A stretch of DNA of 64,000 nucleotides from Chloroflexota bacterium (GTDB lineage: Bacteria; Chloroflexota; Chloroflexia; DAOUBH01): NCBI GenBank assembly GCA_034432775.1, contig DAOUBH010000022.1, positions 27,170-91,169 of the forward strand, in the 5' to 3' direction. A program made the position numbers and the translations under genes. Positions within the stretch are counted from its first letter, which is position 1. Each line of letters opens with the position of its first letter. The notes under the pieces are model-generated. The model saw only the letters and a list, made by a program, of their open reading frames with translations, was not told the DNA's origin and ran no database searches. This document shows, piece by piece, positions 3,617 to 61,259 of the stretch.

Positions 3617-3934
3617 AAACAGATAAAGCGCCAGCCATGCACCCCCTGTCGACCCAGCCCTTCCTGCTTACCCGTGCTGGCTGACTCCGACCAGGTTTCC
3701 CCACGGCGCCCAGGATTGCCCGCTTACCGTTGCTTCCTTCCGGACCTGGCGGGGTTCACGGGATCCTGCCGCGTAGGACCCAGCCTTCAACGTCGCCCGG
3801 CACGGGCAGTCCAACAAGAACCGGCCTCGAGGGGGACTTCGACCCCGCTACAGCGGATTGCGGGTACAGGGCACCGCTAGCTCCCCGTCTAGCATGGCTG
3901 GCATATCCATTATAACTGGACCCGCGGTCATCGG

Positions 3935-11612: not shown

Positions 11613-12298
11613 TCTTCGACCTCTCCTCGAAAACCCAGCCGTGCATTATACCCCACACTCACGAGAAGCCCGCCCAGCTGCCCGTGCGAATTTGGCCAGA
11701 ACCTTTGTGCAGCCGAGGCGAGCATACCTCCGGTAATACCTAGCAGAGCAAGAAGGGACAGCATTGAATCTTCCTGCTTGGGGAGATAAAACTAAACGCA
11801 AGGCTCAGTGTATGCCCCAGCCCACGTTCAAGTTCGGCCGTGCAGGCTAGAGCGACTAGCATTTTTTTCTCCAGTGGGTCCCACCCTCGGGCCTCATCGG
11901 CTGCGAGAATACCTTAAAAAATTCTAGGACGTGGCCTATCTTCCCCCAGCTAACAACTATCGTATCGGTATGTAGTTCCGCAGAATCTGAGCTCTTGGCG
12001 CGCGTACGCCCGTGTACGATTGAAGGGCAGTGCCTACTGCCAGACAAGTCAAGCACTGTCAGGGACCTGCACAGTTAACACGAGGGCAGGAAGACGAAAA
12101 CCGATGGACGTATAGGGTTCGCGGTACGGGCAGCCTCCGAGCTTCGAATGATACCTTTAACCCGTTATATACATTGGTATATTGCCGTTAAATTCTGACG
12201 CAATCTTAAAAGATGCTACGCATAATGAAACAAGTAGGCTTTTGCACTTTCAACTCTGGTACAAAGACTTATCATGCCACAGGCGGGAGTGGCGGAGC

Positions 12299-15061: not shown

Positions 15062-15082
15062 GACAAGGGGAGGGTACTTGCC

Positions 15083-15733
15083 GTGGCACGATGGGGAATG
15101 GCCATCGACCTCAGGAAATGCAACGGATGTCAGACGTGCACCGTAGCATGCAAGATCGAGAATTTCACCCCAAAGGGTTTGCTTTGGGGACAAGTTTACG
15201 ATTATGAGACCGGGCAGTATCCCACAGTCCAACGCCGCTTCCTTCCCGCCCTTTGTATGCACTGTGAAAGTCCGCCATGCAGAGACGTGTGCCCGACAGG
15301 CGCCACCAAAAAGAGAGAAGACGGAATCGTTTATGTCGATTATCAGAGGTGTACCGGTTGCCAGGCATGTGCCTTAGCCTGTCCGTACGAAGCGCGCTTC
15401 CTCTACACGGAACGGGATGGGTATTTTGACCGACGCAGAACCCCATACGAACAGTTCCCATACGAGTGGAGAGCACCATCGCAACGGTTTACGAACGGAA
15501 CCATGACGAAATGTACCTTCTGTATGCACCGGATAGATCAACACCCAAATAAGCGTCCAGGTATAGATCCGGAGGCCACACCTGCCTGCGTCGTTGCCTG
15601 TATCACCGGAGCACGGATCTTCGGTGATCTGGACGACTCAGAGAGCGAGATCAACAAGGTAATCCGGGAACGACGCGGCTTCACACTGCTGCCTGAGCTC
15701 GGGACTGGGCCTTCCGTGTATTACTTGCCCTAA
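15083..15733 (+). CDS. 4Fe-4S ferredoxin-type electron-transfer subunit of molybdopterin oxidoreductase
   Basis: Four Cys clusters: CNGCQTCTVACK, CMHCESPPCRDVCP, CTGCQACALACP, CTFCMH...CVVAC; GTG start 9 nt after GGAGG. Confidence 0.85.
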   Translation: MARWGMAIDLRKCNGCQTCTVACKIENFTPKGLLWGQVYDYETGQYPTVQRRFLPALCMHCESPPCRDVCPTGATKKREDGIVYVDYQRCTGCQACALACPYEARFLYTERDGYFDRRRTPYEQFPYEWRAPSQRFTNGTMTKCTFCMHRIDQHPNKRPGIDPEATPACVVACITGARIFGDLDDSESEINKVIRERRGFTLLPELGTGPSVYYLP

Positions 15734-15753
15734 AAGCGAAGCTCTAATAGGGT

Positions 15754-16605
15754 GTGTGGGAGGTAAAGGCAGTGATTTCCATCCATGGTCAGAGAAACTG
15801 GGGTTTCACGACAGCTCTGGCAATGTTCCTCGAGGGGAGCTGTGGCGCCACTACGGTAAGCGGAATACTTCTAGGCAATCTACCCATGGTAATACTTGGG
15901 GTAGCCCTCGGAATGGCAGCCGGCTTGATCCTTTTACTTGAGCTCGGAAATCCGAAAAATGCAATCTGGTTACTTGCAGGCATACGTCATGCTTGGATTT
16001 CGCGAGGTACTCTCCTACTACTGTTAGTCATTGTTTTTGGCCTTGCATACGCTCTCGTCGGCCTGCCAACTGTGGGCGCCCCGCCCGTCTTAAGCGTAGT
16101 CGCGGGTGTCACCGCTGGAATCGCAGGCCTCTTGCTGACACTGTACCCAGGGTTCCTGCTCGCTTCGTTCAAGCCCATACCGTTGTGGCATTCGGCCTTG
16201 TCGCCCATTCTCTCTTTCGGCATTAGCGCCCTAGGCGGTTTCGGCGTAACTTTGGTCATGTCCCCACTGGTAACTGTAAATGCAGTACAGATGACGATTC
16301 CTGCAGTGTCAGGTGCAGTGGTCTTTCAAGCCGTGGCGTGGTGGGCATTTATCGACACAGCGCTAAAAGGTAGCGTTACAGAATCCCACGGAGCTAGGGT
16401 GCTATTGGGGCTACCTGTCTTCTCAGCTGGGGCCATCGCGGTTGGCTTGGCATTACCTGGAGTAATCATGGTTTTAGCGTGGGCCGCAGGCGTTACATCA
16501 CTTCCGTTGTATGTCGTAGCAGGGGTATGTCTGCTTGCTGGAAGTCTAAGCGCTAGGTACGCCCTATTAAGGGCTGGTGTGCGATTGCGGTGGCAGCCGG
16601 CCTAG
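15754..16605 (+). CDS. integral membrane anchor subunit (NrfD/PsrC/DmsC-like) of molybdopterin oxidoreductase
   Basis: 283-aa protein with ~8 hydrophobic helices directly downstream of the catalytic and FeS subunits. Confidence 0.6.
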   Translation: MWEVKAVISIHGQRNWGFTTALAMFLEGSCGATTVSGILLGNLPMVILGVALGMAAGLILLLELGNPKNAIWLLAGIRHAWISRGTLLLLLVIVFGLAYALVGLPTVGAPPVLSVVAGVTAGIAGLLLTLYPGFLLASFKPIPLWHSALSPILSFGISALGGFGVTLVMSPLVTVNAVQMTIPAVSGAVVFQAVAWWAFIDTALKGSVTESHGARVLLGLPVFSAGAIAVGLALPGVIMVLAWAAGVTSLPLYVVAGVCLLAGSLSARYALLRAGVRLRWQPA

Positions 16606-18930: not shown

Positions 18931-20321
18931 GGCAGAAACACCAGCAGGAAGCAGATCTGCTCGTCCTGGGGGAATGGATCCTCCTGTCAGCAAACGATGC
19001 CCTACAACGGGGAGCCATAGCGGTACGGGACGGCCTTATAGTCGATGTTGGTCCCCAACGAGATGTTATGGAACGGTACCGCGCCAAGAGGGTCATCGGC
19101 GGCGCCGATAGGATCGTTGCTCCCGGGCTAATAAATACCCATACCCATCTCTTTCAGACCTTCCTCCGCGGATTGGGCGAAGGGCTGCCATTGCGCACCT
19201 GGGTCGAGCGAGTAACTACCCCTGCTGCCCTTGCCATGACCTGGGAAGACGCCTACCTGTCGGCTGCCCTGGGCCTCATCGAGGCCCTTCACTCCGGAAC
19301 TACGGCTGTCTTCGAGTATGGGTACGCCTTTCCAGATCCATCCCTGCACGAGGCCACCTTGAAAGCTTTCCTCGATGTGGGAGTGCGTGGCTGGTTGGGG
19401 ATAGGTGTCAACGATGCTGGGATTGAGTTCGGCGTCCATCCGGCATTCATTCAGACCGTCGATGAGGCTCTGAAGAAGGTGGACGATTTGCGTGTCGCGA
19501 TGGCCAGGCTTGGCCAGATGCCGGTCCAGTTAGCCCTCGTCTCGGGAAGCATCAGAGGCCTATCTTCCCAGGGCGTCAGGGCCTTCCATGGGTACGCAGA
19601 GGCCAACGGTCTACTCTATTCCCTCCACCTCAAAGAGATACCCCAGGACGACGAAACAGCCCTGCTGCGTTTCGGTACCAGGGCAGTGCCGTGGCTCGCT
19701 GATTGCGGGGTCCTCAAGCCTAATCTCCTCGCTGTCCACTGCGTGTGGCTCAACCAGGAGGACATAGACCTCCTGGCTGAGGGCCGCTCCTCTGTGTCCC
19801 ACAACCCCGTCAGCAACATGTATCTAGGTGCGGGGATAGCTCCAGTGGCAGAGTTGCTGCAACGTGGGATCGCAGTAGGCTTAGGCACCGACGGGCCAGC
19901 AAGCAACAACAGCATGGACATGCTCCAGACGCTGAAGTTCTCCATACTGGGACAGCGAGCCCGAAAGGCCTCGCCCGATATCATAACCTCGAGGGACGGC
20001 TTCCGCATGGCTACGGAGGACGCTGCCCGGGCCTTGGGGGTCGAGGGTCTTCTTGGACGCATCGCTCCTGGATATGTGGCCGATATTGTTGTTTTCCGCA
20101 CCGATACCTTCCAGGGAGTCCCTTGCCATGACCCCTACGCTACGTTAGCCTTCTCAGCCGGTTGTGGCTCCGTAGAGACCGTGATGGTCGGAGGGCGGAT
20201 CGTTCTAGAGGAGGGTCTGGTCAAGACCCTCGATGAAGCCGACATCGTGGCTAGGGCATCGACAGCAGCCAAGGATCTGGTCCAGCGAGCAGGCATACCC
20301 GCAGGAGTGTTCGTGAGGTGA
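18927..20321 (+). CDS. metal-dependent amidohydrolase (cytosine/guanine deaminase or chlorohydrolase-like)
   Basis: APGLINTHTHL metal-binding HxH, later HCVW and GLGTDGPASNN; GTG start overlaps permease stop (GTGA). Confidence 0.75.
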   Translation: MRQKHQQEADLLVLGEWILLSANDALQRGAIAVRDGLIVDVGPQRDVMERYRAKRVIGGADRIVAPGLINTHTHLFQTFLRGLGEGLPLRTWVERVTTPAALAMTWEDAYLSAALGLIEALHSGTTAVFEYGYAFPDPSLHEATLKAFLDVGVRGWLGIGVNDAGIEFGVHPAFIQTVDEALKKVDDLRVAMARLGQMPVQLALVSGSIRGLSSQGVRAFHGYAEANGLLYSLHLKEIPQDDETALLRFGTRAVPWLADCGVLKPNLLAVHCVWLNQEDIDLLAEGRSSVSHNPVSNMYLGAGIAPVAELLQRGIAVGLGTDGPASNNSMDMLQTLKFSILGQRARKASPDIITSRDGFRMATEDAARALGVEGLLGRIAPGYVADIVVFRTDTFQGVPCHDPYATLAFSAGCGSVETVMVGGRIVLEEGLVKTLDEADIVARASTAAKDLVQRAGIPAGVFVR

Positions 20322-21345
20322 TCTCGGGCATCACCATGAATCCCGATGCCGATCCCCAGGTGTTGAAAGCCATAGCCCGACAGGTGGAGGAGCTCGGATT
20401 CTCCTACTGCTACGTTGCCGACCAAGGCCTGAGTCGCGACGTATATGTGACACTGTCCAACCTGGCCGCCTCCACCACAAGCCTACGGTTGGGCCCTGGA
20501 ATCACTCACCCCTATGTGCGGCACCCGGCCGCCACAGCCGTGGCCATAGCGACCCTAGATGAGCTATCCCACCACAGGGCCTTCCTGGGCATAGGAGCCG
20601 GTGGCACCCGCGCCCTCGCCCCCTCAACATCGACAGAAGAGAGCCACTCCGCGCCTGCACCGAGGCAGTGGAAATTGCGCGACGGCTCTGGACCGGCCAA
20701 CCCGTAGACTTTTCCGGCCGCTACTTTCAGCTTAGAGGCGCCCGCATCAACTTTCCTTGCCGGCACAATATAGAGGTACACTGGGCTGCCCGGGGTCCCA
20801 AGATGCTACGCCTGGGCGGTGAACTGGCTGATGTAGTTTTCCTCCATGGAAACCCCCACAGCGAGATAGCTGAAGCTGTGCGCCATGTTCGGGCGGGAGC
20901 CCTTGAGGCCCAACGGAAAGTGAGGATTCACCTGGCACTGCCAATAATCTATGATCAGGCCTCCTTCGAGAGCGGACGCTTAAGGACAGCTTGCAGGTTG
21001 GTCGATCTCACTGAGGATGCCAGGAGGAGGCTGGACATATCCACACAGCTCCATTCCAGGATCAGGGAGCTGGTGCTATCGTCGCAGCTCGAGTCCGCTG
21101 CACAGCTTGTGGAGCCTGAACTGGTCAGGCAATTTGTAGTCGACGCCACAGACCCGGAGTCGCTTCGCGATCTGGCCAGGACCATAGCTTCTCTCAACTT
21201 GGACGGCTTTATAGTGGAGATCAGTAACCCGTACCTGGCTGCAACTATACTTCCCGTGGCCCATCAGGTCATCGCCAAGACCATGCAGCTGCTCAAGGAC
21301 CAAACTACTGGTAGTCCACAAACCTATCAGGGAGGTGTCCCATGA
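20318..21345 (+). pseudogene. F420-dependent LLM-class (luciferase-like/Mer-like) oxidoreductase, reading frame broken by apparent -1 frameshift in a C5 run (20619-20623)
   Basis: N-terminal frame ...LGPGITHPYVRHPAATAVAIATLDELSHHRAFLGIGAGG (Mer-like); C-terminal part continues in another frame as PLNIDRREPLRACTEAVEIARRLWTGQPVDFSG...; one extra C would restore GAGGTRALAPLNIDRREPL. Confidence 0.6.
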
Positions 21346-22424
21346 GGCGTTTCAGAGGCTTACGGTGGTATCAGATCCTCACACTACTCGTGCTAGGGCT
21401 CTTTCTAGTTGCCTGCAGCCAGCCAACACCGGCACCCCCGGCCGGAGCCCAGGCAAGCCCAGCGCCCAGCCCAGCACAGCCTACCCCGACAGCCAAGCCG
21501 GCACCCGACAAGGTCACCCTCAGGCTCTCATGGCGGTGGAAGGCCGAGTTTGCACCCCTGGTCCTTGCTGACGACAAAGGCTTCTTCAAGGAAGAGAACA
21601 TTGAAGTGCAGCTCCTCGAAGGCAAGGGGTCTGGTGATGTAGTCCCCCTCATAGCCAACAAGACCGACACCTTCGGCTACCTTAATCTCACCACGGTGGC
21701 GATAAGCACAGCTAAAGGTCTACCCGTAAAGGTTGTGGCCGGTCTTATGGCTAAGAACCCTTCAGCTCTGGCCTTCTTCGCTGAGAAGAACATAAAGCAA
21801 CCCAAAGACCTAGAGGGCAAATCCATTGCCCTGACACCGGGTGAGGCCTTCGCCGTCATTTGGCCAGCTTTCGCTAAGAAATGGGATATCGATACCTCCA
21901 AAGTCACCACCGTCAACCTCGACCCCAGCGTTAAGAATCAGGCGTTCCTGGAAGGACGCATCGATGTACTTCCTGTCTATGTGAACAACGAGCTGCCTCA
22001 GATCCGCTACCAGGCCAAGAAGCCCATCGACATCCTCACGCCAGCCGATTGGGGCTTCAACACCATAGCCAACGGGATCATCACCCACGTGGACACCATC
22101 AAAGAAAAACCCGACCTGGTACGCAGGTTCGTCCGCGCCGTAGCTAAGGGTTACAAGTACGCAATCGACCATCCAGACGAGGCAGTAGCCGCCGTGTCCA
22201 AGCGGTCAGATGCCCTTGCCAGCCAGCCGAAGGAGGTGCTCCTCGAACAGGTCACAATGACCTTGGACTTTATGTACAGTCCCAACAACAAGGGCAAGCC
22301 CATCGGATGGATGGCCGATGAAGACTGGACCGCTACCATCGACCAACTCTTCCAGACCGGCGCCATCGATAAAAAGCTTCCCAACGACACCTTCTACACG
22401 AACGATTTCGTACCCAAGGAGTGA
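21342..22424 (+). CDS. ABC transporter substrate-binding lipoprotein (NMT1/THI5/SsuA-like)
   Basis: Signal peptide with lipobox LFLVAC-S, Pro/Ala-rich linker, periplasmic binding protein body; start overlaps LLM stop. Confidence 0.8.
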   Translation: MRRFRGLRWYQILTLLVLGLFLVACSQPTPAPPAGAQASPAPSPAQPTPTAKPAPDKVTLRLSWRWKAEFAPLVLADDKGFFKEENIEVQLLEGKGSGDVVPLIANKTDTFGYLNLTTVAISTAKGLPVKVVAGLMAKNPSALAFFAEKNIKQPKDLEGKSIALTPGEAFAVIWPAFAKKWDIDTSKVTTVNLDPSVKNQAFLEGRIDVLPVYVNNELPQIRYQAKKPIDILTPADWGFNTIANGIITHVDTIKEKPDLVRRFVRAVAKGYKYAIDHPDEAVAAVSKRSDALASQPKEVLLEQVTMTLDFMYSPNNKGKPIGWMADEDWTATIDQLFQTGAIDKKLPNDTFYTNDFVPKE

Positions 22425-48757: not shown

Positions 48758-49811
48758 GACCAGCTGCGACGAGACTTCCGCAGCAGTGGTAGAGGACGGA
48801 ACCTATGTACGTAGCAACATTATCTCCTCCCAGATCGAACTCCATCGTCTACATGGTGGGGTCGTGCCTGAGCTTGCATCGCGCCAGCACATTCGGCTCA
48901 TCCCATCAGTGGTGTCACAAGCGCTGGACACGGCAGGCATCTCCCTGGCAGACTTAGAAGCAGTGGCCGTCACCCACGGACCTGGCCTGGCGGGTGCGTT
49001 GCTCGTAGGCGTGAACTTCGCCAAAGCCCTCGCTCTATCCAGGCGCCTCCCGCTGCTAGGCGTGAACCACCTGGAAGGCCACATATATTCTACCTGGCTC
49101 AACTACCCCTACGACGCCCAATGGAGCCCGCCGGAACTGCCTTGCCTCATCCTCATTGTATCTGGCGGTCACACCCAGCTCGTACTTATGAACGACCACC
49201 TCACATTTCGAACCCTGGGCCGTACGCACGACGATGCTGCCGGCGAGGCCTTCGACAAGGTAGCGCGCCTCCTGGGCTTGGGGTATCCGGGCGGCCCAGC
49301 CATACAAAGGCTTGCCGAAGAAGGAGATCCCGACGCCTATCCCATGCCCCGGGCCAACCTTTCCAACCCCTACGACTTCAGCTTCAGCGGCCTGAAGACA
49401 GCGGTGCTTCGCCTCGTCCTTTCTCTGCAAGGCAAGGACCCCAGACAGCCCGACAAGCTGGCCCGCATTACATCTTCCCCGCCTGAGCTACCTAGAAAAA
49501 TCCTTGCCGACATTGCAGCATCCTTCCAAAAAGCAGTGGTCGATATGCTGGTAGCTCCGACCTTGCAGGCGGCGAGAGTCTTCGGTGTAAAGGAGATCCA
49601 CGTGGTGGGAGGCGTGGCAGCCAATAAACTGTTGAGAAGTCAAATGCTCCAGTTGGGACACGTAGTCCGCATGCCCCATCTACAACTCTGCACCGACAAC
49701 GGGGCCATGATTGCAGCAGCTGCCTATCGACTGTGGCTAACAGGTATCACTGCTGGTTTCGACATGGATTTAGAGCCAAATCTGCCACTGCGTACTACGC
49801 CTCGGGGGTGA
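48738..49811 (+). CDS. tsaD: tRNA N6-adenosine threonylcarbamoyltransferase TsaD
   Basis: LGIETSCDETSAAVV, HLEGH metal motif, VVGGVAAN. Confidence 0.9.
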   Translation: MLILGIETSCDETSAAVVEDGTYVRSNIISSQIELHRLHGGVVPELASRQHIRLIPSVVSQALDTAGISLADLEAVAVTHGPGLAGALLVGVNFAKALALSRRLPLLGVNHLEGHIYSTWLNYPYDAQWSPPELPCLILIVSGGHTQLVLMNDHLTFRTLGRTHDDAAGEAFDKVARLLGLGYPGGPAIQRLAEEGDPDAYPMPRANLSNPYDFSFSGLKTAVLRLVLSLQGKDPRQPDKLARITSSPPELPRKILADIAASFQKAVVDMLVAPTLQAARVFGVKEIHVVGGVAANKLLRSQMLQLGHVVRMPHLQLCTDNGAMIAAAAYRLWLTGITAGFDMDLEPNLPLRTTPRG

Positions 49812-50463
49812 GGATACCCTTCCGCAGAGCGAACTTCACCAGTTCAGCCCTGCTATGCAAGCCCAATTTCTCCATGATGTGCGATCTGTGGGCATCAACA
49901 GTTTTCGGACTGAGTACCAACTTTTCGGCAATCTCGCTGCTGGTGTAGCCTTCCGCCACGAGCCGCAGTACCTCACGTTCACGGTCAGTCAAGCTGTCCA
50001 GGGCATCGCGGGCCCCTTCGCGCTTCACCCGGTGAAGGTAGTCGCTCACCAACATGGTTACGACTTCGGGATAGAGGAACGTCCCTCCCTTTGCCACCGT
50101 CTCGATGGCATCGATCAACTCGGTGTCGGCGGCCTTCTTTAGGACGTACCCCGATCCACCGGCTTGCAGCACCTGGAAGAGGTACTCCTCGTTGGCATGC
50201 ATGGTAAGCACCAGGACCTTGCAAGAGGGGCATATCTTCCTGAGGGCTCTGATGGCCTCCAACCCGCTCATGCCCGGCATAGTTATATCCAACAACACCA
50301 CGTTGGGCTGAAGTTCCTTCACTTTCCCCAAAGCCTCTTCGCCAGTGCCGGCCTCCCCAACAACCTCCATATTGGGTTGCCGGTTCAGCAGGAGGCGCAG
50401 ACCCGCTCGAAGGATACTGTGGTCATCCACTATAAGGAGAGTTATCTTACCTTCACTTGCCAT
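49795..50463 (-). CDS. two-component response regulator, NarL/FixJ (LuxR-HTH) family
   Basis: REC domain LLIVDDH...VLLDITMPGMSG; C-terminal HTH LTDREREVLRLVAEGYTSSEIAEKL. Confidence 0.85.
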   Translation of the reverse strand: MASEGKITLLIVDDHSILRAGLRLLLNRQPNMEVVGEAGTGEEALGKVKELQPNVVLLDITMPGMSGLEAIRALRKICPSCKVLVLTMHANEEYLFQVLQAGGSGYVLKKAADTELIDAIETVAKGGTFLYPEVVTMLVSDYLHRVKREGARDALDSLTDREREVLRLVAEGYTSSEIAEKLVLSPKTVDAHRSHIMEKLGLHSRAELVKFALRKGILTPEA

Positions 50464-51514
50464 CGTGTATGGGAACTCTCAACTCGACGCGTGTCCCCCT
50501 GCCAGGCTCAGACTCGACCCTCAGCGTTCCACCCACCAGCGCCATACGTTCCTGCATGCCGAAGAGCCCTAGGCTCTTAAAGGCCTGGCCATCCGTAAGC
50601 GTCGATGGATCAAACCCTATCCCATCGTCCTCAACCAGTGCCCTTAGGGCCCCGTTGGTCCTTGTTAAGGTGACTTGAACCCTACTGGCTTTACTGTGCT
50701 TGGCCACATTGGTAAGGGCTTCCTGTATAACCCTGTATACGGCAGTTTCCACATGGGCAGGCAACCTATCAGTCCATCCTTCAACAGTGAGGCTGGAGGC
50801 AATCCCCAATTTCTTAGACCACTCTCCCAAATGCCATCTCAAGGCCGGTATGAGTCCCAGGTCGTCTAGGGTCTTGGGCCGCAACTCCAGGGCCATCCTA
50901 TGAACGCCCTCAAGGGCTTGATGGGTAAGCGAAAGCAGTTCCGACACATACCTGCGGACTTCATCAGGATTCGGCTGCTCTTCCAACACCTTTAGACCCA
51001 CGGCGATGGAGGTCAGAGCCTGGCCAGTGTCGTCGTGGAGCTCGCGGGCAATTCGCTCACGCTCCTCCTCCTGTGCCTTGATGATCCTTGCCGAAAGGGT
51101 CTGCAATTGCTCCGAGTATTGGGCTATGGAACGGGCCCGTTCAGCCAGCATATCGAGCATCTGGTTCATGGTGTGGGCCAATCGTTCCGTACCAGCATCG
51201 AAAAAGGGCGAATCGGGCACTCGAGCCTCGAAGTTGCCGGATCCGATCTCCCGGGCCGTTCGTTCCATGGCCACCAACGGTAGCAGGGCAGCTTTAAGGA
51301 GTAGAAAGTTGGTGATAATGCTGACAAAGGTTCCAGCTGTGGCCACCACCAGTGTGACCTCTAAAGGCGATTTGTCGGGGTGAATCGATACATAGGTAGC
51401 AGTCACCCAGGTGCCCACCACAGCACCGGCTATAACTATAACTGAGTTGGCTATAAGCACCTTGTAAGCTAGGGGGATTCGCGCAATGGTCCTAACGAAA
51501 CGGACCATGGCCAC
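50453..51514 (-). CDS. sensor histidine kinase (HisKA_3 type)
   Basis: N-terminal TM helices; H-box EEERERIARELHDDTGQAL; HATPase region VEDDGIGFD, GLFGMQER. Confidence 0.8.
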   Translation of the reverse strand: MAMVRFVRTIARIPLAYKVLIANSVIVIAGAVVGTWVTATYVSIHPDKSPLEVTLVVATAGTFVSIITNFLLLKAALLPLVAMERTAREIGSGNFEARVPDSPFFDAGTERLAHTMNQMLDMLAERARSIAQYSEQLQTLSARIIKAQEEERERIARELHDDTGQALTSIAVGLKVLEEQPNPDEVRRYVSELLSLTHQALEGVHRMALELRPKTLDDLGLIPALRWHLGEWSKKLGIASSLTVEGWTDRLPAHVETAVYRVIQEALTNVAKHSKASRVQVTLTRTNGALRALVEDDGIGFDPSTLTDGQAFKSLGLFGMQERMALVGGTLRVESEPGRGTRVELRVPIHDGK

Positions 51515-51533: not shown

Positions 51534-51836
51534 TCACAGGAGACCTGGGATCTTCATACCGCCTGCGATGGAGCTCAGTTTCTTCGCAGCCAACTCCCTC
51601 GACTTTGCCAGGGCATCGTTCACGGCAGTGAGAATCAGATCTTCCAGCATCCCTGGATCCTCAGGATCCATCGCTTCCGGATCAATTTTGATGGAGACTA
51701 TGCTTTGCTGGCCATTAGCCACGACCGTAACAGCCCCTCCTCCTGAAGTAGCCTCCACCCGCTCCGAAGCCAGTTCCTCTTGTGCCTTTAGCACCCTGGC
51801 CTGCATCTGCTGCAGCAGTTTAATGTTGGGCTGCAT
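51534..51836 (-). CDS. YbaB/EbfC-family nucleoid-associated protein
   Basis: 100 aa; MQQMQARVLKAQEEL...SGGGAVTVVANGQQSIVSIKIDPE. Confidence 0.85.
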   Translation of the reverse strand: MQPNIKLLQQMQARVLKAQEELASERVEATSGGGAVTVVANGQQSIVSIKIDPEAMDPEDPGMLEDLILTAVNDALAKSRELAAKKLSSIAGGMKIPGLL

Positions 51837-51999: not shown

Positions 52000-53007
52000 T
52001 TAGACGATCACGTCCTCCTCACTGCGGGAGATCACGATCTCCTCCGCTTCATCCAGCCGCCGCACAACGTTCACAATGCGCTGCTGGGCTTCCTCCACCG
52101 ACTTAAGCCTCACGGGCCCCGAAAGAGCAATCTCCTCCTTCAACATTTCGGCCGCGCGGCTAGACATATTGCGGAAGACCTTTTCCTTGAGGTCCTCCCC
52201 AGCCGCCTTGAGAGCCAGGGCCAGGTCCTTGCTGTCCACCTCCCTGAGCACCCTCTGAAGGGACCTATCGTCCAGTTTCACCAGGTCGTCGAAAGTGAAA
52301 AGAAGTTTCCTGACCTGTTCTGCCAGATCTGGATCTCTTTCTTCCAGGCGCATGAGGATGGCCTTCTCCGTGGCCCGGTCCACCCGGCTCAGCAATTTGG
52401 CCACCTGCTCGATCCCGCCCACCGAAGAGTACTCATCTGCTATCAACAGCGACATCTTGTCCTGCAGAACCCGCTCTACCTCCCTCACAATATCGGGAGA
52501 AGTGCGATCCATGGTAGCCATCCGTGTCACAACGTCAGCTTGAAGGTCGTGATCGAGTGCCGCCAATATGGCACTAGCAGTGGTGGGCGGAAGATGGGCC
52601 AACACCAAGGCTATGGTCTGGGGATGCTCGTTTTGCAAGAAACTTACGACGCTCGAAGGATCGGTCTTCCTCACGAAATCGAAGGGCATCGGGCGCCTGA
52701 GGTTGGTTATGCGCCCAATGAGCTCTTCGGCCCTCTCCTTTCCCACAGCTTTTTCCAGAAGTTCGCGGGCATACCCGGCGCCCCCTACGGAAAGATACTG
52801 CTGGGTTACAGACATGTGGAAGAACTCTTCCAGTACCCTCTCCCGAATCTCGTCAGGCACCTTGTCCATGCGGAATATCTCCATGGTAAGGCGTTCGATG
52901 TCTGTGTCTCGAAAATGCTTGAGCACCTGGGCCGACGCCTCGGGCCCAAGGGCTATGAGCAGTGCTGCCGCCTTCTGAATGCCCCTTAGAGACGATTGGC
53001 TAGCCAT
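52000..53007 (-). CDS. fliG: flagellar motor switch protein FliG homolog
   Basis: 336 aa from ATG 53007 (GGAGG upstream); GIQKAAALLIALGPE, EHPQTIALVLAHLPP, C-terminal MSSRAAEMLKEEI. Confidence 0.75.
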   Translation of the reverse strand: MASQSSLRGIQKAAALLIALGPEASAQVLKHFRDTDIERLTMEIFRMDKVPDEIRERVLEEFFHMSVTQQYLSVGGAGYARELLEKAVGKERAEELIGRITNLRRPMPFDFVRKTDPSSVVSFLQNEHPQTIALVLAHLPPTTASAILAALDHDLQADVVTRMATMDRTSPDIVREVERVLQDKMSLLIADEYSSVGGIEQVAKLLSRVDRATEKAILMRLEERDPDLAEQVRKLLFTFDDLVKLDDRSLQRVLREVDSKDLALALKAAGEDLKEKVFRNMSSRAAEMLKEEIALSGPVRLKSVEEAQQRIVNVVRRLDEAEEIVISRSEEDVIV

Positions 53008-53312
53008 AGCTGGTGCCTCCGCCACATACCCATTCGCCGAAGTTGATTGCAGTTCAATCCCCATGGTACCAATCGACGCACAACGTCTAAAGCACCACAG
53101 GTACTTGTGGACCGGGTACCGAGGTACCCCATTCACCGCGAGTTGCCGGCCTTCCCCACCAAAACTCAGTAAAGCGAAAACCCACGCTCCGCCTAACTTG
53201 AGAAGGCTGCTATAATGGCCGCAAAGCCGGCGGGGCTTCAGAGCTGGTTTAAAGGGAGGATGGCTAGCTGAAAACGCGGGCCATTGTACCATTCGTGGGA
53301 GTCTTCGCCGTT

Positions 53313-53858
53313 ATGACTGGTCTAATCGTCTCCACTGTAATGCCTGCCATGGCCTTCGACCCTGCTGACCCTGCGATGGAGCGCGTCTGGCAGCGCTACG
53401 ACAAACCCATCGTGGATGGCGTCGCCTCCAACCGCTCTTGGATGTGGGGCCCCAACCCGAACACCGCCGGGATCTTCGACCCCTACGCAGAAAGCCCTGG
53501 CGGTCAAAGGCTCGTCCAGTACTATGGTAAGAGCCGCATGGAAATCAACAGGACCGACATAACAGACCCCAACCACCCGTGGTACGTCACCAACGGGTTG
53601 CTCAGCGTAGAACTGATCACAGGTCGTATTCAGAAAGGGAACGCCACCTTCGAAGACAGAGGCTGCGGTGCCGCTATACCCGTAGCCGGCGATCCAACCA
53701 ACACGTGGCCGACCTACCGGGGTCTTCAGGGGCGCATCAATACGACCGGCATGGGAGCTGCAGACCGAACTGGCCAGTATGTCACAGGAGTCCTGAACCC
53801 CGATGGGAGTACCTCGCCTTATCCCGGGGGCAACGACCCAGGGGCCCAGCTAGTCTAA
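53313..53858 (+). CDS. hypothetical secreted protein (possibly 5' part of a disrupted longer gene)
   Basis: Signal peptide MTGLIVSTVMPAMA-FDP; no known motif. Confidence 0.4.
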   Translation: MTGLIVSTVMPAMAFDPADPAMERVWQRYDKPIVDGVASNRSWMWGPNPNTAGIFDPYAESPGGQRLVQYYGKSRMEINRTDITDPNHPWYVTNGLLSVELITGRIQKGNATFEDRGCGAAIPVAGDPTNTWPTYRGLQGRINTTGMGAADRTGQYVTGVLNPDGSTSPYPGGNDPGAQLV

Positions 53859-53907
53859 CTACGACACAAACCTCGGTCACAATATCCCCAAGGCCTTCTG
53901 GGACTTC

Positions 53908-54765
53908 ATGCATGCAACGGGTACTATCTTCTCCAATGGAAGCTACCTAACGGCTTCACCCTGGTTCGACTGGGTATTCGTCATGGGTCCACCCATCGGC
54001 GAACCCTACTGGGCACTGGTGAAGGTAGGCGGCGTGGACAAATGGGTACTTTTCCAGCCCTTCGAACGTCGGGTACTCACTTACACTCCATCCAACCCCG
54101 ATCCCTGGAAGGTGGAGATTGGCAACATTGGGCAGCACTACTACCGCTGGCGCTATGAAGGAGTAGGTGCCACCTGCCCTGGTCCTAGCGCAACCCCCAC
54201 ATCTTCCCCAACGCCTACGGCAACACCGTCCCCGACAACTGTCTACGACTTCGTAGCTAGGGCTGACCACGCATCATGGTCTAGCGGCACCGGAAAGACG
54301 CAGCAGCACACCCTCCCCTTCCCAGGTTCAGACGTGGACAGCCGCGGCTTTGCCCTCTGGCGGACCCCAGCCACAATGGAGAATGGCTCTTCCGTATCCA
54401 GATGCCTCGAGACTCATCCCAAGTGGGTAGACAACGGTTTCATCCTGGGAACCTATACGGAGCTCTACTCGCCCATAGGTTAGACTGTCAACCCCAAGGA
54501 CCGCTTCCAGGCTAGGGCGGGCCTGCTGCAGGGAGCGGCCGCGGGCAACGTTCGCTTCAAAGTCATGATCCGTCCCGAAGGTGGACCAAACCAATGCGTC
54601 GTAGACATAATCGATGGCTACGGTGACGGGCTGAAGACTATGGACGTGGGCCTCGCCAGTTGGTCTGGCAAGAAGGCCGACTTCATCCTGGAGGTGGAAG
54701 CCAACGGGTCCTCGGGTCAGGACTGGGCATGCTGGACATCAGCTGCAATCGTCCGATACCCCTGA
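53908..54765 (+). pseudogene. hypothetical protein, coding frame continues through in-frame TAG at 54481-54483
   Basis: ORF 53908-54483 and 54484-54765 share one frame with coding-like codon use across the amber codon; Pro/Thr/Ser linker PSATPTSSPTPTATPSPTT. Confidence 0.35.
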
Positions 54766-54964: not shown

Positions 54965-55771
54965 TCAGCCAGATACCTTCCTGTAGAAGCAGGTCCTATA
55001 AGGCACCAGGCCCAATGCCCTCGGGGTTAGCAATATCTCTGTAGAACCCACAAAGAGGAAGCCCCCTGGTTTCAGTGAGGCCACGAAGCCTCTGTACACC
55101 CGGTCCTTCGCCTCAGGCGTAAAGTAGATCACGACGTTTCGACATACTATAAGATCGTAGGGCCCCCCATAAGGATCCCTCAAGAGATCGTGTTCCTTGA
55201 ACTTAACTTTGGTGCGCAAACGATCGCTAACCCAGTATGACCCCCGTCGCACCTCGAGATAATCGGAAAGGAACCTCTGAGGCACATTTCTTATGCATGT
55301 ATAGGAATACGGTCCCCCTGCCCGGGCGATCTGAAGGACCGAAGAGTCCACATCTGTAGCGAGGATGCTGTACCTAGCTTGCGGGTTGTGAGCATCGAGG
55401 AGCATGGCCAGGCTGTAAGGTTCCGCACCTACAGAACACCCTGCCGACCACACGCCTATGGAACCCGAACCTTCCAGCAGTACTGGAATGACCTCGTCTT
55501 CTAAGATTCGGTACTTCTCAGGGTCTCGGAAGAACTCACTTACGTTGATGGTGAGGAAATCCCGAAAGGCAGCACGCTGGCCGACATCCGACGCCAATTT
55601 CGAAGCTAGCTCATCGAGCGACCTCAAACCGTTTCTCGCAAGGTAGCCTTCCAACCTTCTCACCAGCTGGGACTCTCTGTAGCCCGACAGGTCTATCCCT
55701 AGGAGTGTGAGCACATCCCGCTGGAAACGCTTCAATTCTGTGCGTGCGACAGTTACCTGGCCACTGCCCAT
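54965..55771 (-). CDS. cheR: chemotaxis protein methyltransferase CheR
   Basis: SAM-binding VWSAGCSVGAEPYSLAM; 268 aa. Confidence 0.9.
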   Translation of the reverse strand: MGSGQVTVARTELKRFQRDVLTLLGIDLSGYRESQLVRRLEGYLARNGLRSLDELASKLASDVGQRAAFRDFLTINVSEFFRDPEKYRILEDEVIPVLLEGSGSIGVWSAGCSVGAEPYSLAMLLDAHNPQARYSILATDVDSSVLQIARAGGPYSYTCIRNVPQRFLSDYLEVRRGSYWVSDRLRTKVKFKEHDLLRDPYGGPYDLIVCRNVVIYFTPEAKDRVYRGFVASLKPGGFLFVGSTEILLTPRALGLVPYRTCFYRKVSG

Positions 55772-56793
55772 GATGCAAGCTCTACAAGCCTTTCAGCAAT
55801 TCTTGGCAACGGAACGACCTCGTCGGCAGCCCCAGCCTCTATGACGCTCCTCGGCATGCCGAAGACAACGCAGGTGGATTCGTCTTCCGCCAACACCTTC
55901 CCCCCTGCTCTGTGGATGGCCCTGGCCCCCTCTGCTCCGTCATTTCCCATGCCCGTCAGTACAGCAGCTACCGTCCTTCCACCGTAGTAGGATGCCAACG
56001 ATAGGAAAGTTACATCCACCGAGGGCCGAACGCCGTGGACCTTCGGTCCGCTTTCGAGGCGAACACGTCCCCTATCCACCACTAGGTGGATATCCCCCGG
56101 CGCCACGTAAACCTGCCCAGTCCGCAGCTCCTCGCCATGGGCTGCCTCCACTACTGGCAATGAAGAGGCCGCATCCAGGCGCTGGGCCAGTGCCCGTGTA
56201 AAGCCGGATGGCATATGTTGCACCACAACAACAGCGCAAGGAAGATCTCGGGGCAAGTGCGGGATCACCTCGTACAGTGCCCTTGGACCACCTGTAGAAG
56301 CTCCAATGGCTACCACGGCTTCGGCCGCGAGTCCAAGGCCGGGCGTAGACGCAAACGGTTTGCTTTCCGCCCTACGGACCGGCGTCTTATGCAGCCTGCT
56401 TCGAGCCGCGGCCTTAACTTTGGCAATGAGATCCTCGCCTAGAGTGACAATGCCCATGGCAGAACCATTCTGCGGCTTCGCTATGAAGTCCACCGCCCCC
56501 AACTCAAGAGCCCTAAGGGTCACTTCGGCACCTTCCCTGGTGTGGGAACTCAGCATAACCACAGGGGTGGGTCTATGTTCCATGATGCGTGCCAAGGCTT
56601 CCAAGCCGTCCATCACTGGCATATCCACGTCCAGAGTGACGACATCGGGCGCAAGGCTGATCACCTTTTCGACCGCCTCGGCCCCATTGGCTGCCGTATC
56701 CACCACCTGGATCTGCCGATCAGCCCCCAGGCGCCTGGATATGGCGTAGCGGATGAACGCCGAGTCGTCCACAACTAGAACCCGTACCCCCAT
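55753..56793 (-). CDS. cheB: chemotaxis response regulator protein-glutamate methylesterase CheB
   Basis: REC domain VLVVDDSAFIR then methylesterase domain IGASTGGPRAL. Confidence 0.9.
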   Translation of the reverse strand: MGVRVLVVDDSAFIRYAISRRLGADRQIQVVDTAANGAEAVEKVISLAPDVVTLDVDMPVMDGLEALARIMEHRPTPVVMLSSHTREGAEVTLRALELGAVDFIAKPQNGSAMGIVTLGEDLIAKVKAAARSRLHKTPVRRAESKPFASTPGLGLAAEAVVAIGASTGGPRALYEVIPHLPRDLPCAVVVVQHMPSGFTRALAQRLDAASSLPVVEAAHGEELRTGQVYVAPGDIHLVVDRGRVRLESGPKVHGVRPSVDVTFLSLASYYGGRTVAAVLTGMGNDGAEGARAIHRAGGKVLAEDESTCVVFGMPRSVIEAGAADEVVPLPRIAERLVELASWAVAR

Positions 56794-56795
56794 CC

Positions 56796-57152
56796 TCAGC
56801 CCACCATTTTTTTGACCGCTGCCAACACCCGCTGAGGCTCGAAGGGCTTGAGGACAAAGTCTTTCGCACCGCGCTTGAGCGCCTCGATGACCATGGCCTG
56901 CTGACCCATGGCCGTGACCATAGCGACACGCGCGGAAGGGTCAAGCTCCCTTATCGCTTTGAGAGCCTCTAAACCGTCCATATCGGGCATGGTGATGTCC
57001 ATAAGCACGGCATCGGGACGGATCTCCTGGTAGAGCTTCACAGCCTGGAGGCCATTCTCCGCCTCCACCACTTCGTAGCCGTGCTCCTTCAAAAGCCGTG
57101 AGCAACGCATCCGCATGAAGGCAGCATCGTCGACAATCATGATCCTCGCCAT
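56796..57152 (-). CDS. cheY: chemotaxis response regulator CheY
   Basis: 118-aa stand-alone REC: IMIVDDAAFMR...VLMDITMPDMDG...KDFVLKPF. Confidence 0.9.
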   Translation of the reverse strand: MARIMIVDDAAFMRMRCSRLLKEHGYEVVEAENGLQAVKLYQEIRPDAVLMDITMPDMDGLEALKAIRELDPSARVAMVTAMGQQAMVIEALKRGAKDFVLKPFEPQRVLAAVKKMVG

Positions 57153-57167
57153 AGTCCCTCCCAGATT

Positions 57168-57668
57168 TCAGATCTCCTTCGGAATTCCGTTGGCAGTCTT
57201 CACCAACATGATGCCAGTAGACGGGTCGAAACGTACGGTACGTGCGTGCCTGCCCCCTACGTCCTTACCTAGCACAGGCACGGCATTGGCATCCAACACC
57301 CGGAGGACTGCTTCTACATTGCGTTGGCCAACTTCCATCTGTTTACCCGCCAGCGGGCCAAGGTCGAGAAGTTTGGCTCCCCCTGAGAGCTTTGCCCTGA
57401 TCCCCGATGCCGGCACGCCCAGGTCCACAAGCATCTTTTTCAGGGTTTCCACCGCCACATCCGCATATTTCCCTGGCATGGATACGGGCCCTGTCCCATT
57501 GGATGGCAACAAGATATGGGCCATCCCGGCCACACCGAGCAGGGCATGGTACATCACCAGCGCCACGCAGGAACCCAGGCCGTATGCGACCAATATCTCA
57601 CCGGGCGCCTGGGCCAGCTTGACCTCACCGATGCCAACCTCTATCTGCACCGGCCTCATAGTAGACAT
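57168..57668 (-). CDS. cheD: chemoreceptor glutamine deamidase CheD
   Basis: 166 aa; LGSCVALVMY with catalytic Cys. Confidence 0.85.
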   Translation of the reverse strand: MSTMRPVQIEVGIGEVKLAQAPGEILVAYGLGSCVALVMYHALLGVAGMAHILLPSNGTGPVSMPGKYADVAVETLKKMLVDLGVPASGIRAKLSGGAKLLDLGPLAGKQMEVGQRNVEAVLRVLDANAVPVLGKDVGGRHARTVRFDPSTGIMLVKTANGIPKEI

Positions 57669-58270
57669 CGCTCCCTCATTTTGGACATCAGGTTGGCACT
57701 GGGCACCACGAGGAACACCCCAGCCATGCTTCGCTGGCCTTCGCCGAAGAGCGATCTCGCCATCAACACCCTGTCGTTGGCAATGACACCGTGGAATACC
57801 GCCTCACCCAGCATGGCCCCACTCATGTCGCATACCACTGCCGGAGGTGCGCAGGGCATACCCAAGCCCAGCATATCCGCCATATGTCCTACAAAGCTCC
57901 CGGCCATTACATTGCCCACTTCGGCCAGGGCAGATGCTTCTAGAGGGTCGAGGGCCATCATGTCGTGGCATGGCCTATCTAACAGCAGCTCGAGCAAGCT
58001 GGAGACACTGTCTGGAGGTAGAAGTAGCACGACCAAACAACTCCCTTGCCCATAAAAGAAGACATACACCCCTAAAGCAGGAGCCTCGGGGCTGCCCAGC
58101 ATATGCGACAGGTCACTCAGCGGAAGCTCCTCGAGCTTGAACTCCACCACATCGAGGTTCTTTCCGATCATGGCCGACAAAGACCCCAGCGCCCGCTGGA
58201 AAGCCCCGGCCATAAGCCTCTCGAGACTTTCGACTTCTCTGGCACCAATGAAGCCCTCATGGATCAACAT
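57656..58270 (-). CDS. cheC: CheC-like CheY-P phosphatase
   Basis: 204 aa; CheC/FliY-type ASALAEVGNVMAGS (E-x2-N) motif. Confidence 0.65.
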   Translation of the reverse strand: MLIHEGFIGAREVESLERLMAGAFQRALGSLSAMIGKNLDVVEFKLEELPLSDLSHMLGSPEAPALGVYVFFYGQGSCLVVLLLPPDSVSSLLELLLDRPCHDMMALDPLEASALAEVGNVMAGSFVGHMADMLGLGMPCAPPAVVCDMSGAMLGEAVFHGVIANDRVLMARSLFGEGQRSMAGVFLVVPSANLMSKMRERCLL

Positions 58271-60303
58271 CTAACAACCTCCATGGCCTTCGGTTCGGCA
58301 GTCATAGCGGCGGTCCTGAGGATGCTCCCAGCATCGAGGATGAGACCAACAGTTCCATCCTCCAGGATGGTAGCTCCCGAGACGCAGCTCATGTGAGTCA
58401 ATGGCACATCCAGGCTCTTAATAACTACCTCCTGGTTCCCTATCAGGGCATCCACCTTCATGGCCAGCTGGCGTCCACCTAAGTTCATCACCACAATCCA
58501 AACCTCCCTATCGCGCAGGTGTACAGTCGGCCTGCCGTGCAAGAGATCGTCCAGATCCACCAACGGGAGTGTCGCCCCGCGGTAGTCCGTTATTAGCCTG
58601 CCACCGAAGTAATGAAGGGCATCTACGGGTATCTTCATAACTTCTCGCACAGCTGTGAGAGGAATGGCGTAAGTGGTGTCCTTGGCCGACACGAGCAAAG
58701 CGTTGACTATGGCTAGGGTCAGGGGAAGTCTGAGTTCCACCTCCGTTCCCCTACCAGGCTCCGAGTGGAGCGACACCGTGCCATTCAGCCTCTCTATGTT
58801 CGATCTGACCACATCCATGCCAACACCGCGGCCAGATACCTCGGTAACTTTCGACGCTGTGGAGAACCCAGGTCTGAAGACAAGGTCCAACAGCTCATCC
58901 CTTCCCATCCTCTGGGCCATTTCCGGATTTATCAACCCCTTGACCAGTGCCGTTTTCCTCACCTGCTCTACGTCTATCCCTCGACCATCGTCCTCAACAC
59001 GGATGACGATCTGTCCCTCCTCGTGGCAGGCGACCAGCCTTATAGTGCCCCTCTCAGGCTTTCCGGCAGCCGATCTGACTTCAGGAGGCTCGATCCCGTG
59101 ATCCACGGCATTTCTCAGAAGATGTATCAGGGGATCCCCCACTCCCTCGATCACAGTGCGGTCCAGTTCAGTCTCCTGGCCTTCAATGACCAAGTCCACC
59201 TTTTTGCCACTCTTTATGGCCAGATCCCGAACCATACGAGGAAACTTGCTGAAGACGGTCCCTATAGGCACCATGCGACTCCGGGTAACTTCGAGATGCA
59301 GTTCTTCCGTAACACGTGCCATCTGCGTCGCCGCGTCCAGAAGGTCGCCCGCGGTGCCATCAGAACCCATCTCTTCTGCTATTTGAGCCCCAATACGGCT
59401 CAACCGCGTTCTCAGGATCACCAGCTCGCCCACCAAATTCATCAGGTTATCGAGCCGCTCCAGATCGATCCTGACAGTTCGTGCCAAACGCGCGGGCCTA
59501 TCAAGGTTGTCGCCACGAGGAGATATGGGCACAGCCTCATGGCCATCCGGCGCCCCTTCTCCGGCTCCCGTGTTAGCTTCGGCAGCCTTTACAGCTTCTA
59601 TCGACAACTCGTCGATCTCGTCGACCTGCTTGAGGGCCTCCCTTAAATCCTCAGGAGCAAGGTCAGTGGCTACATACATCACCAGTGCGTGGCCAACCTT
59701 CTGGGACTCGATGTCATCAAGTGAGGGAATAGAGGCTACGAGCTCGCCTCTTGCCATGGCCTCCAGGCAGAGCTGGAGTTGGCGGGCGGCGACGAAACTG
59801 CTGTCCCGGGAGACACGGGCTGCCACCTTGTAGAGCCGTCGGCCCTCCGACAGATACACTTCGATGCTGGCTCTCTCCAGGGCCGTAAGCTGATGATCCA
59901 CCCTCTTTGGAGAGCCCAACATCCTGCGAAGCGAGGCCACCAGGTCATCTGAAGAGGGTAGGGAAGTGCCTCCGACGATGGCTTCTCTCATTTCCCTCAG
60001 TTTGTCGAGAGAAGCCAGCAGACTGCTGACCACTTCGGATGTCAGTGAGAGTTGCCCTTGCCTCAGATAGTCTAAAACCTCTTCCATGGCATGGGCCAGC
60101 TGGGCCATGGGTACAACCCCTGCCAGACCAGCCGAACCCTTTAGGGTGTGGGCAGCCCTGAAGACCCGGTTAAGCAGCTCGGGTTCAATCCCCACTTCCT
60201 CCATGCGGAGGAGGTCCTCGTCGAGGGCTTGCATATGCTCGTCCAGTTCAGCTAGAAATAGGGCTAGCTCTTCAGCAGAAAGTCCTTCCATTGATACCGC
60301 CAC
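58264..60303 (-). CDS. cheA: chemotaxis histidine kinase CheA
   Basis: Hpt HTLKGSAGLAG, dimerisation and HATPase (DDGRGID, GRGVGMD) domains, C-terminal CheW-like domain; 679 aa. Confidence 0.9.
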   Translation of the reverse strand: MAVSMEGLSAEELALFLAELDEHMQALDEDLLRMEEVGIEPELLNRVFRAAHTLKGSAGLAGVVPMAQLAHAMEEVLDYLRQGQLSLTSEVVSSLLASLDKLREMREAIVGGTSLPSSDDLVASLRRMLGSPKRVDHQLTALERASIEVYLSEGRRLYKVAARVSRDSSFVAARQLQLCLEAMARGELVASIPSLDDIESQKVGHALVMYVATDLAPEDLREALKQVDEIDELSIEAVKAAEANTGAGEGAPDGHEAVPISPRGDNLDRPARLARTVRIDLERLDNLMNLVGELVILRTRLSRIGAQIAEEMGSDGTAGDLLDAATQMARVTEELHLEVTRSRMVPIGTVFSKFPRMVRDLAIKSGKKVDLVIEGQETELDRTVIEGVGDPLIHLLRNAVDHGIEPPEVRSAAGKPERGTIRLVACHEEGQIVIRVEDDGRGIDVEQVRKTALVKGLINPEMAQRMGRDELLDLVFRPGFSTASKVTEVSGRGVGMDVVRSNIERLNGTVSLHSEPGRGTEVELRLPLTLAIVNALLVSAKDTTYAIPLTAVREVMKIPVDALHYFGGRLITDYRGATLPLVDLDDLLHGRPTVHLRDREVWIVVMNLGGRQLAMKVDALIGNQEVVIKSLDVPLTHMSCVSGATILEDGTVGLILDAGSILRTAAMTAEPKAMEVVRC

Positions 60304-60330
60304 ATCGTGTTAATCTGACGTTTCGTCCCA

Positions 60331-60789
60331 TCAAGCTACTTGGGCAACAGCCAGAACCTCATCTTTCTCCGGCTGCGATAGGATACTGTCCAGGTCGGCA
60401 AAGATCACGAGTCTTTCGTCGAGACGGATAATACCCTTTAGATACCTGGTTTCCGACGTGGCCACCAGATCGGAAGGCTTCTCCACCATATCTTCCGTGA
60501 ACCGTAACACCTCCGTCACCGCGTCCACCGCCATGCCAATGGTTCTGCCGTCGAACACAATCACCATAATGCGGCCTGATGCAGCGTCTACAGATCCGGG
60601 CAGCCCCAAACGACGTCTGAGGTCGATTACAGGAACAACCTTTCCCCGCAGGTTCAAGACCCCCATCACGAAGTCCGGGCTGCCAGGAACCTGAGTTATG
60701 CGCTGCATACGTATGATTTCCTGCACTTTTGATATCTCCACCCCGTAGTGTTCCCCAGACAATGTGAAAACTACCAGCTGACCGTCCAT
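60331..60789 (-). CDS. cheW: chemotaxis coupling protein CheW
   Basis: 152 aa; LVVFTLSGEHYGVEISKVQEI...VLNLRGKVVPVIDLR. Confidence 0.9.
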   Translation of the reverse strand: MDGQLVVFTLSGEHYGVEISKVQEIIRMQRITQVPGSPDFVMGVLNLRGKVVPVIDLRRRLGLPGSVDAASGRIMVIVFDGRTIGMAVDAVTEVLRFTEDMVEKPSDLVATSETRYLKGIIRLDERLVIFADLDSILSQPEKDEVLAVAQVA

Positions 60790-60794
60790 GACCT

Positions 60795-61259
60795 CTAAGC
60801 CTCCTGTACTGCGAGATGTATCTCGAAGGTTCCAAATTCGCCTTCCAGAGGTACTACAAGCCGCCTAGGGGCCAGCGTGGAAATGCGAGTCGGACCGTTG
60901 CCGTTGACGATGGCCGGTGGCGATATCTGAAAGGGCCAACCAGACTTGGCCAACCATGTGGCAGCCCTACCCGTAATCACATTACCCAGTTCCGCTATCC
61001 CACTGAGCCCAAGTTCGTCCAGCTCGGTGACGGTCTCCCCCGACATTGCCGACAGAACCTTCAACGCAGCCTGCTTGTCTACGGTGTAGATGGCTAGCCC
61101 CTCCAATTTGCCTGTCATGCCGACCACTACGCCAACTCCATGGGAAGCGATGGGCCCTGCCTCCACCCGCGGCATACCCATACTCACATCCGACCCTGTT
61201 TCGGCCGTCAAAACTGTCTTGGCAGCATTCAAGAAGGCGTTTACCACTTCAGCCCGCAC
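60795..61259 (-). CDS. cheX: CheX/CheC-family CheY-P phosphatase
   Basis: 154 aa; LSGIAELGNVITG (E-x2-N) motif. Confidence 0.65.
   Translation of the reverse strand: MRAEVVNAFLNAAKTVLTAETGSDVSMGMPRVEAGPIASHGVGVVVGMTGKLEGLAIYTVDKQAALKVLSAMSGETVTELDELGLSGIAELGNVITGRAATWLAKSGWPFQISPPAIVNGNGPTRISTLAPRRLVVPLEGEFGTFEIHLAVQEA

Follow-up and report, generated by a model that had tools for sequence, protein, structure and literature searches.

The window, the whole 64-kb stretch of DNA that was analysed, carries on its minus strand a gene for the flagellar rotor/switch protein FliG (52000..53007). The gene translates into 335 amino acids from an ATG at 53007, with a ribosome binding site GGAGG (53016..53020, minus strand, read from the sequence) positioned 8 nt before that ATG. 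The start codon occupies a common position in the window and in three related loci (L082, L095 and L096). A longer reading of 430 amino acids, beginning at an upstream ATG, is an artefact, and the start that yields 335 amino acids is the one kept in three other lineages.

Downstream of fliG and on the same strand lie ybaB/ebfC (51534..51836, 163 nt away), a HisKA_3 histidine kinase (50453-51514) and a NarL/GerE-type response regulator (49795-50463), the last two assigned by Pfam. Upstream of it lies a chemotaxis operon, cheX-cheW-cheA-cheC-cheD-cheY-cheB-cheR (54965..61259, minus strand, Pfam), whose cheR stop is 1,958 nt from fliG. The sequence-only reading had described a fliG-like gene with ybaB, a histidine kinase and a NarL-type regulator downstream of it, about 2 kb from cheR...cheX and with no other flagellar gene in 64 kb, and our scans bear out each part of this description. 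By its gene content (CheA, CheW, CheY, CheB and CheR together with CheC, CheD and CheX, from Pfam), the operon fits an F1-type flagellar chemosensory system and is in this respect like the systems of Bacillus and Thermotoga. The whole 64-kb window contains no gene for a methyl-accepting chemotaxis protein.

Pfam scans of the roughly 60 predicted window proteins found no flagellar gene besides fliG, and no archaellum or CheF gene in the 64 kb. A blastp comparison of the open reading frames of 85 fliG loci with all open reading frames of the window likewise returned no fliE, fliF, fliH, fliI, fliJ or other flagellar gene; its matches were FliG, the che proteins, response regulators and a few housekeeping proteins (ABC transporters, plsX). 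The gene is thus found outside the usual fliF-fliG-fliH position, which is typical of FliG and does not define it.

The arrangement is shared by relatives. Synteny of fliG with ybaB is kept in L082, L083, L089-L091, L095 and L096, the kinase/regulator pair also stays with fliG in relatives, and the order of the che genes is repeated in L089. Wherever the DNA of these relatives can be read, it runs from the che operon through a gene for a 490-amino-acid protein to fliG, ybaB, the histidine kinase, the response regulator and tsaD. The presence of this 490-amino-acid gene amends the earlier picture of the locus: the gap between cheR and fliG holds a disrupted gene for a secreted protein on the opposite strand (53268..54762, plus strand), divergent from fliG. 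The window homologue of this conserved protein is broken by one frameshift, of 1 nt and near 53850, and by one in-frame stop (54481-54483); the gene is intact in L082 and L089-L091. Either the window copy is a pseudogene or the assembly is wrong at this place. Given its signal peptide, its P/T-rich linker and the lack of a match to any Pfam family, we ruled the protein out as a flagellar component.

Domain structure and conservation of FliG

The window FliG has the complete domain set of the family. Pfam assigns FliG_N (153 bits), FliG_M (119 bits) and FliG_C (155 bits), all three far above their gathering scores and together covering residues 7-326, and the NCBIfam equivalog model for fliG, TIGR00207, scores 407.3 bits over residues 4-335 with a cutoff of 226.7. 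The translated reading frame carries the peptides GIQKAAALLIALGPE, EHPQTIALVLAHLPP and MSSRAAEMLKEEI, the three that had been quoted when the protein was called a full-length FliG homolog from the sequence alone, and that call holds. Residues 107-330 align without a gap to Thermotoga maritima FliG-MC (PDB 1LKV) at 267 bits, and two structures of FliF-binding FliG_N, 5TDY and 5WUJ, match the N domain of the window protein.

The residues expected to touch the partner proteins are retained. EHPQ and the arginine of EHPQR (located in VTRMA) are kept and align to the same T. maritima FliG residues, and the Gly-Gly of the window protein (in SVGGI) aligns to the T. maritima Gly-Gly; following definitions in the structural literature on FliG, we take EHPQR to be the FliM-binding motif and Gly-Gly to be a hinge. 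The charged ridge of the torque helix was compared with the MotA-contacting reference residues K264, R281, D288, D289 and R297 of Escherichia coli FliG. It is in register with 1LKV, with K (ALKAA), R (MSSRAA), EE (LKEEI) and R (GPVRLK), and its EE pair is a conservative change relative to DD in E. coli and DE in T. maritima. The conservation check proposed with the sequence-only reading, on the ridge facing MotA and the contacts with FliM, therefore finds every contact motif kept in the 1LKV alignment. Canonical FliG proteins (T. maritima, PDB 1LKV/3AJC/4FHR; the Salmonella C-ring, 8UMD) have the same three-domain architecture and length, and share with the window FliG the EHPQ...R motif, the Gly-Gly linker and the charged torque-helix ridge. 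The window gene differs from them in genomic position only, and apparently has its own promoter.

The gene is also under strong constraint. Its closest relatives, besides an identical database copy, are the FliGs P0121, P0002/P0248/P0249 and P0250, at 88-92% identity. Between the window and L082, fliG has 91.6% amino-acid identity and a saturated proportion of synonymous differences (pS 0.72), in line with pS values of 0.70-0.82 across all 13 syntenic genes compared. Its dN of 0.055 is the lowest of those 13 genes; cheY has 0.075, tsaD 0.164 and cheD 0.30. The combination of saturated synonymous sites with the lowest dN indicates strong purifying selection on fliG.

We also compared distances to an external reference. 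Orphan FliGs, those encoded away from a flagellar operon as in the window, are 54.8-55.9% identical to a set of named Firmicutes FliGs, and for seven other close homologues of FliG the identity to this set is 55.2-57.5%; several of the seven are labelled Chloroflexi/Chloroflexota, and operon context is confirmed for one of them (P0003). Because the orphan FliGs are about as close to the Firmicutes proteins, the relocation appears to have occurred without relaxed or changed constraint. As far as the sequence can tell, fliG is neither decaying nor repurposed, and the window gene is most likely an ordinary, intact flagellar fliG in which the gene order has changed and no new function has arisen.

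Flagellar clusters without fliG in related lineages

The best FliG match outside the clade, at 61% identity, comes from a Chloroflexi metagenome-assembled genome (GCA_023480825.1, locus L001) with the gene order flgC-fliE-fliF-fliG-fliH-fliI-fliJ. The two genes share a phylum label, but the L001 gene lies in a fliF-fliG-fliH operon whereas the fliG of the window clade lies elsewhere. With the FliF of the L001 locus as bait, we found a clade of 521-amino-acid FliF proteins (P0132, P0139, P0137/P0251 and P0141), which are 81-86% identical to one another and 47-49% identical to the outgroup FliF.

In all six contigs that can be read at this position, fliH comes immediately after fliF, and no fliG lies between the two. 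The contigs are L086 (Logan SRR27730042), L087 (JGI 3300036768), L088 (FWWL01000960.1), L092 (JGI 3300042903), L093 (JGI 3300060601) and L094 (Logan SRR35183641). In at least five of them, all but L088, the end of fliF and the start of fliH share 4 nt; in L088 such an overlap is unconfirmed, and the FliH score there refers to a reading that begins at an ATG 22 nt past the stop codon of fliF. A tblastn search with FliG found no fliG in L086-L088. The cluster of the clade, adjoining gltB, is ordered flgC-fliE-fliF-fliH-fliI-fliJ-(M23/SLT)-flgB-?-fliK-?-flgE. In L088, it ends after flgE, the next gene (20300-21563) encoding a multi-pass membrane sensor-like protein; consequently, fliM, fliN, mot and flh of the clade must lie in further loci. 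The gene after fliJ (14058-14999 in L088 and 12747-13694 in L092) fuses an M23 peptidase with an SLT transglycosylase, and is a FlgJ-like cell-wall remodelling enzyme of a monoderm lineage.

The FliF proteins of these clusters keep the C-terminal helix ...EPELVAHVIQAWM, which presumably corresponds to the FliG-binding helix of FliF. If it does, then the FliF proteins of the clade need a FliG that is encoded elsewhere.

Several observations pair the orphan fliG with the fliG-less cluster. Four lineages of orphan FliG stand beside four lineages of FliF from fliG-less clusters. Both types of contig occur together in four samples: SRR27730042 (L095 and L086), SRR35183641 (L090 and L094), JGI 3300042903 (L089 and L092) and JGI 3300060601 (L083 and L093). 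One further fliG/fliF pair is drawn from samples whose JGI identifiers are consecutive (Ga0373637 and Ga0373638), and the FliGs found in NCBI only (that of the window and P0121) are mirrored by FliFs found in NCBI only (P0139 and P0132). Tetranucleotide frequencies of the orphan-fliG contigs, the window included, correlate with those of the fliG-less clusters at mostly 0.93-0.97, falling to 0.83 for the shortest contigs. The values of 0.93-0.97 are about as high as those between the window and its own syntenic relatives, whereas comparison with an outgroup Chloroflexi locus of equal GC gives 0.70-0.81. In the paired samples, the flagellar contigs have a GC content 2-4% higher than that of the fliG contigs. 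We considered the contig carrying P0132 (L088) as that of the window organism and ruled it out on its GC content of 65%, compared to 57% for the window; it belongs to a sister lineage.

Together these observations are good evidence, at the level of the clade, that the orphan fliG and the fliG-less cluster belong together; the link is shown for sister lineages, by co-occurrence in metagenomes and not by physical linkage. The window's own genome presumably carries such a cluster as well. From the sequence alone, two interpretations had been offered, an orphan switch protein for a flagellum whose genes lie elsewhere or a repurposed FliG. The first gains support from the co-occurrence of fliF-fliH contigs with orphan-fliG contigs, and the second runs against the very low dN, the retention of all partner-contact motifs and the lack of any rate acceleration. 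It had also been said that a flagellar gene set elsewhere, complete but for its own fliG, would make this gene simply a displaced one. A fliG-less flagellar core cluster does exist at the clade level, in six contigs and four shared samples; for the window's own organism, it is presumed. The pair of interpretations is accordingly supported only in part, as the fliG-less cluster comes from sister lineages.

The position of fliG and how it may have arisen

We consider it highly probable that the window belongs to a flagellated lineage of Chloroflexota and that this gene is its canonical fliG, probably the sole one, moved from the fliF-fliG-fliH position to one beside the chemotaxis operon. In an ancestor of the clade, which is a small one, fliG would have left the fliF-fliG-fliH arrangement that is universal elsewhere and would have been inserted anew beside the chemotaxis operon, with ybaB and the two-component pair downstream of it. 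The protein would still perform its usual tasks. Its N domain would dock on FliF, the MS-ring protein, at the C-terminal helix, its middle domain would bind FliM through the EHPQ...R motif, and the charged ridge of its C-terminal torque helix would engage the MotA stator. CheY-P from the adjoining che operon would switch rotation through FliM/FliN. The remaining flagellar genes would be distributed over other loci, the core one being the fliG-less cluster that adjoins gltB. The window FliG would then sit in a working motor, in a lineage known here from its genes alone.

The distribution of flagellar genes over several non-contiguous clusters is usual in Chloroflexota, a phylum in which direct evidence for flagella was limited, as of 2023, to Tepidiforma (PMC10284905). 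Tepidiforma and other Dehalococcoidia likewise combine dispersed flagellar loci, in a monoderm phylum, with a che system that contains CheC, CheD and CheX; their description covers three flagellar clusters and, by a term search, never mentions fliG by name (PMC10284905). In the literature searched, we found no description of a single-gene fliG locus beside a che operon.

The region upstream of fliG bears on whether the relocation was neutral. It is poorly conserved, with a single long invariant block across three lineages, GGTAC-N3-GGTACCCG-N8-GTAC (53101..53128, minus strand), which we annotate as a candidate operator. Between this block and the gene lies a candidate sigma-70-type promoter, TTTAGA-N17-TACCAT (53063..53091, minus strand), whose position and both hexamer-like elements are kept in the three lineages. 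The operator and the promoter have both persisted although synonymous sites between these lineages are saturated. However, a stricter consensus scan does not call TTTAGA-N17-TACCAT and reports no strong sigma-70 promoter. By eye, we found no sigma-28 promoter (TAAA-N15-GCCGATAA) upstream of fliG, the conserved elements there looking sigma-70-like. The regulator encoded downstream, of NarL type, is a candidate for binding the putative operator.

On the downstream side, a consensus scan predicted no terminator between fliG and ybaB, and fliG is possibly part of one transcript with ybaB and the HisKA_3/NarL-type pair. In the SRR27730042 lineage (L095, 2546-3057), the spacer between fliG and ybaB is about 510 nt long, compared with 163 nt for the window and some 105 nt for L082, and because it is so variable, co-transcription of fliG with ybaB is not assured.

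These elements could be taken to mean that the relocation was regulatory and not neutral: fliG would have its own promoter and a putative GGTAC operator, its supply would be set apart from that of the basal body, and a two-component controller would sit adjacent to it. We think this unlikely. If it were true, then motor assembly or torque generation would be controlled through a separate supply of FliG.

Could the window gene instead be a second, specialised copy? Some spirochete genomes have two FliGs, one of them encoded outside the motility operon (e.g. PMC7225975), and by analogy with FliG1 of Borrelia an operon-encoded FliG would build the motor while the window copy would be accessory or localised. 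FliG1 of Borrelia burgdorferi is likewise encoded away from the motility operon, but Borrelia also keeps FliG2 within it (PMC7225975), whereas the operon slot of the window clade is empty, fliF abutting fliH in six of six contigs from the matching FliF clade. Consequently, the stand-alone gene most likely encodes the sole FliG rather than an additional one. The four-to-four correspondence between FliG and FliF lineages argues against a paralogue as well. There is neither the acceleration in rate nor the loss of motifs expected from a sub-functionalised copy, and our FliG search returned no second closely related FliG, the next match after the orphan clade being the one at 61%. A paralogue is therefore very unlikely.

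The absence of any flagellar gene but fliG within 64 kb also invites the idea of a relic, or of a FliG repurposed after the flagellum was lost in favour of gliding, pili or an archaellum, and kept for a task outside the flagellum in connection with the che operon or the two-component system. Many Chloroflexota lack flagella, some have archaella together with F1-type che systems (bioRxiv 10.64898/2026.05.11.724246), and the conserved synteny of fliG with ybaB, the kinase and the regulator would fit such a role. Yet fliG has the lowest dN of its neighbourhood, and its FliM- and MotA-contacting residues and its FliF-binding type of N domain are kept, which would make little sense without partners. 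Moreover, the flagellar core cluster that occurs alongside, with a matching signature, is missing precisely fliG, and the window has no archaellum or CheF gene. We give this reading hardly any credence. As for a protein of the MgtE N-domain type, the alternative named from the sequence alone, there is virtually no chance of it: the folds of FliG and MgtE are known to be related and Pfam does report an MgtE_N match on residues 116-168, but its 24.6 bits fall below the gathering score of 25.9 and lie under the far stronger FliG_M match, the protein ends at its FliG_C domain with neither a CBS pair nor an MgtE membrane domain according to Pfam, and the score with the FliG equivalog model exceeds its cutoff by 180 bits.

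If fliG was moved intact, as we propose, then the locus matters chiefly for annotation. Operon-based annotators and genome-based motility predictors that look for fliF-fliG-fliH would wrongly report fliG as missing from the clade, on the strength of its core cluster, and would be equally mistaken in treating the window fliG as a stray flagellar gene. The clade would be a clean case, of a rare kind, in which one essential rotor gene has been excised from a highly conserved flagellar gene order, and would add to the evidence for dispersed flagellar genes in Chloroflexota. The view of how FliG works is unchanged, and the main use of the case is as a caution for operon-based motility annotation.

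Other features of the window

A second apparent frameshift, in addition to that of the 490-amino-acid gene, affects a luciferase-like monooxygenase (20318-21345, plus strand), which is present as two overlapping reading frames, one matching the N part and one the C part of PF00296. This break may point to assembly indels or to gene decay in progress. A three-gene set on the plus strand (12182-16605), preceded by about 570 nt of non-coding DNA, encodes a 959-amino-acid molybdopterin oxidoreductase with weak Pfam matches only, a 4Fe-4S dicluster protein and a 283-amino-acid membrane protein without a Pfam match; the set looks like a Psr/Dms-like respiratory complex.

Besides this oxidoreductase set and ABC/Opp transporters, the remainder of the window is chromosomal housekeeping DNA, with genes for a rhomboid protein, PBP1, SHMT, enolase and iPGM, and with aroA, aroC, parA/parB, plsX, gyrB, tsaEBD/rimI, sfsA and asparaginase II. 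It also includes the SRP RNA, of the large bacterial type (3635-3897, minus strand; Rfam RF01854, 195 bits).
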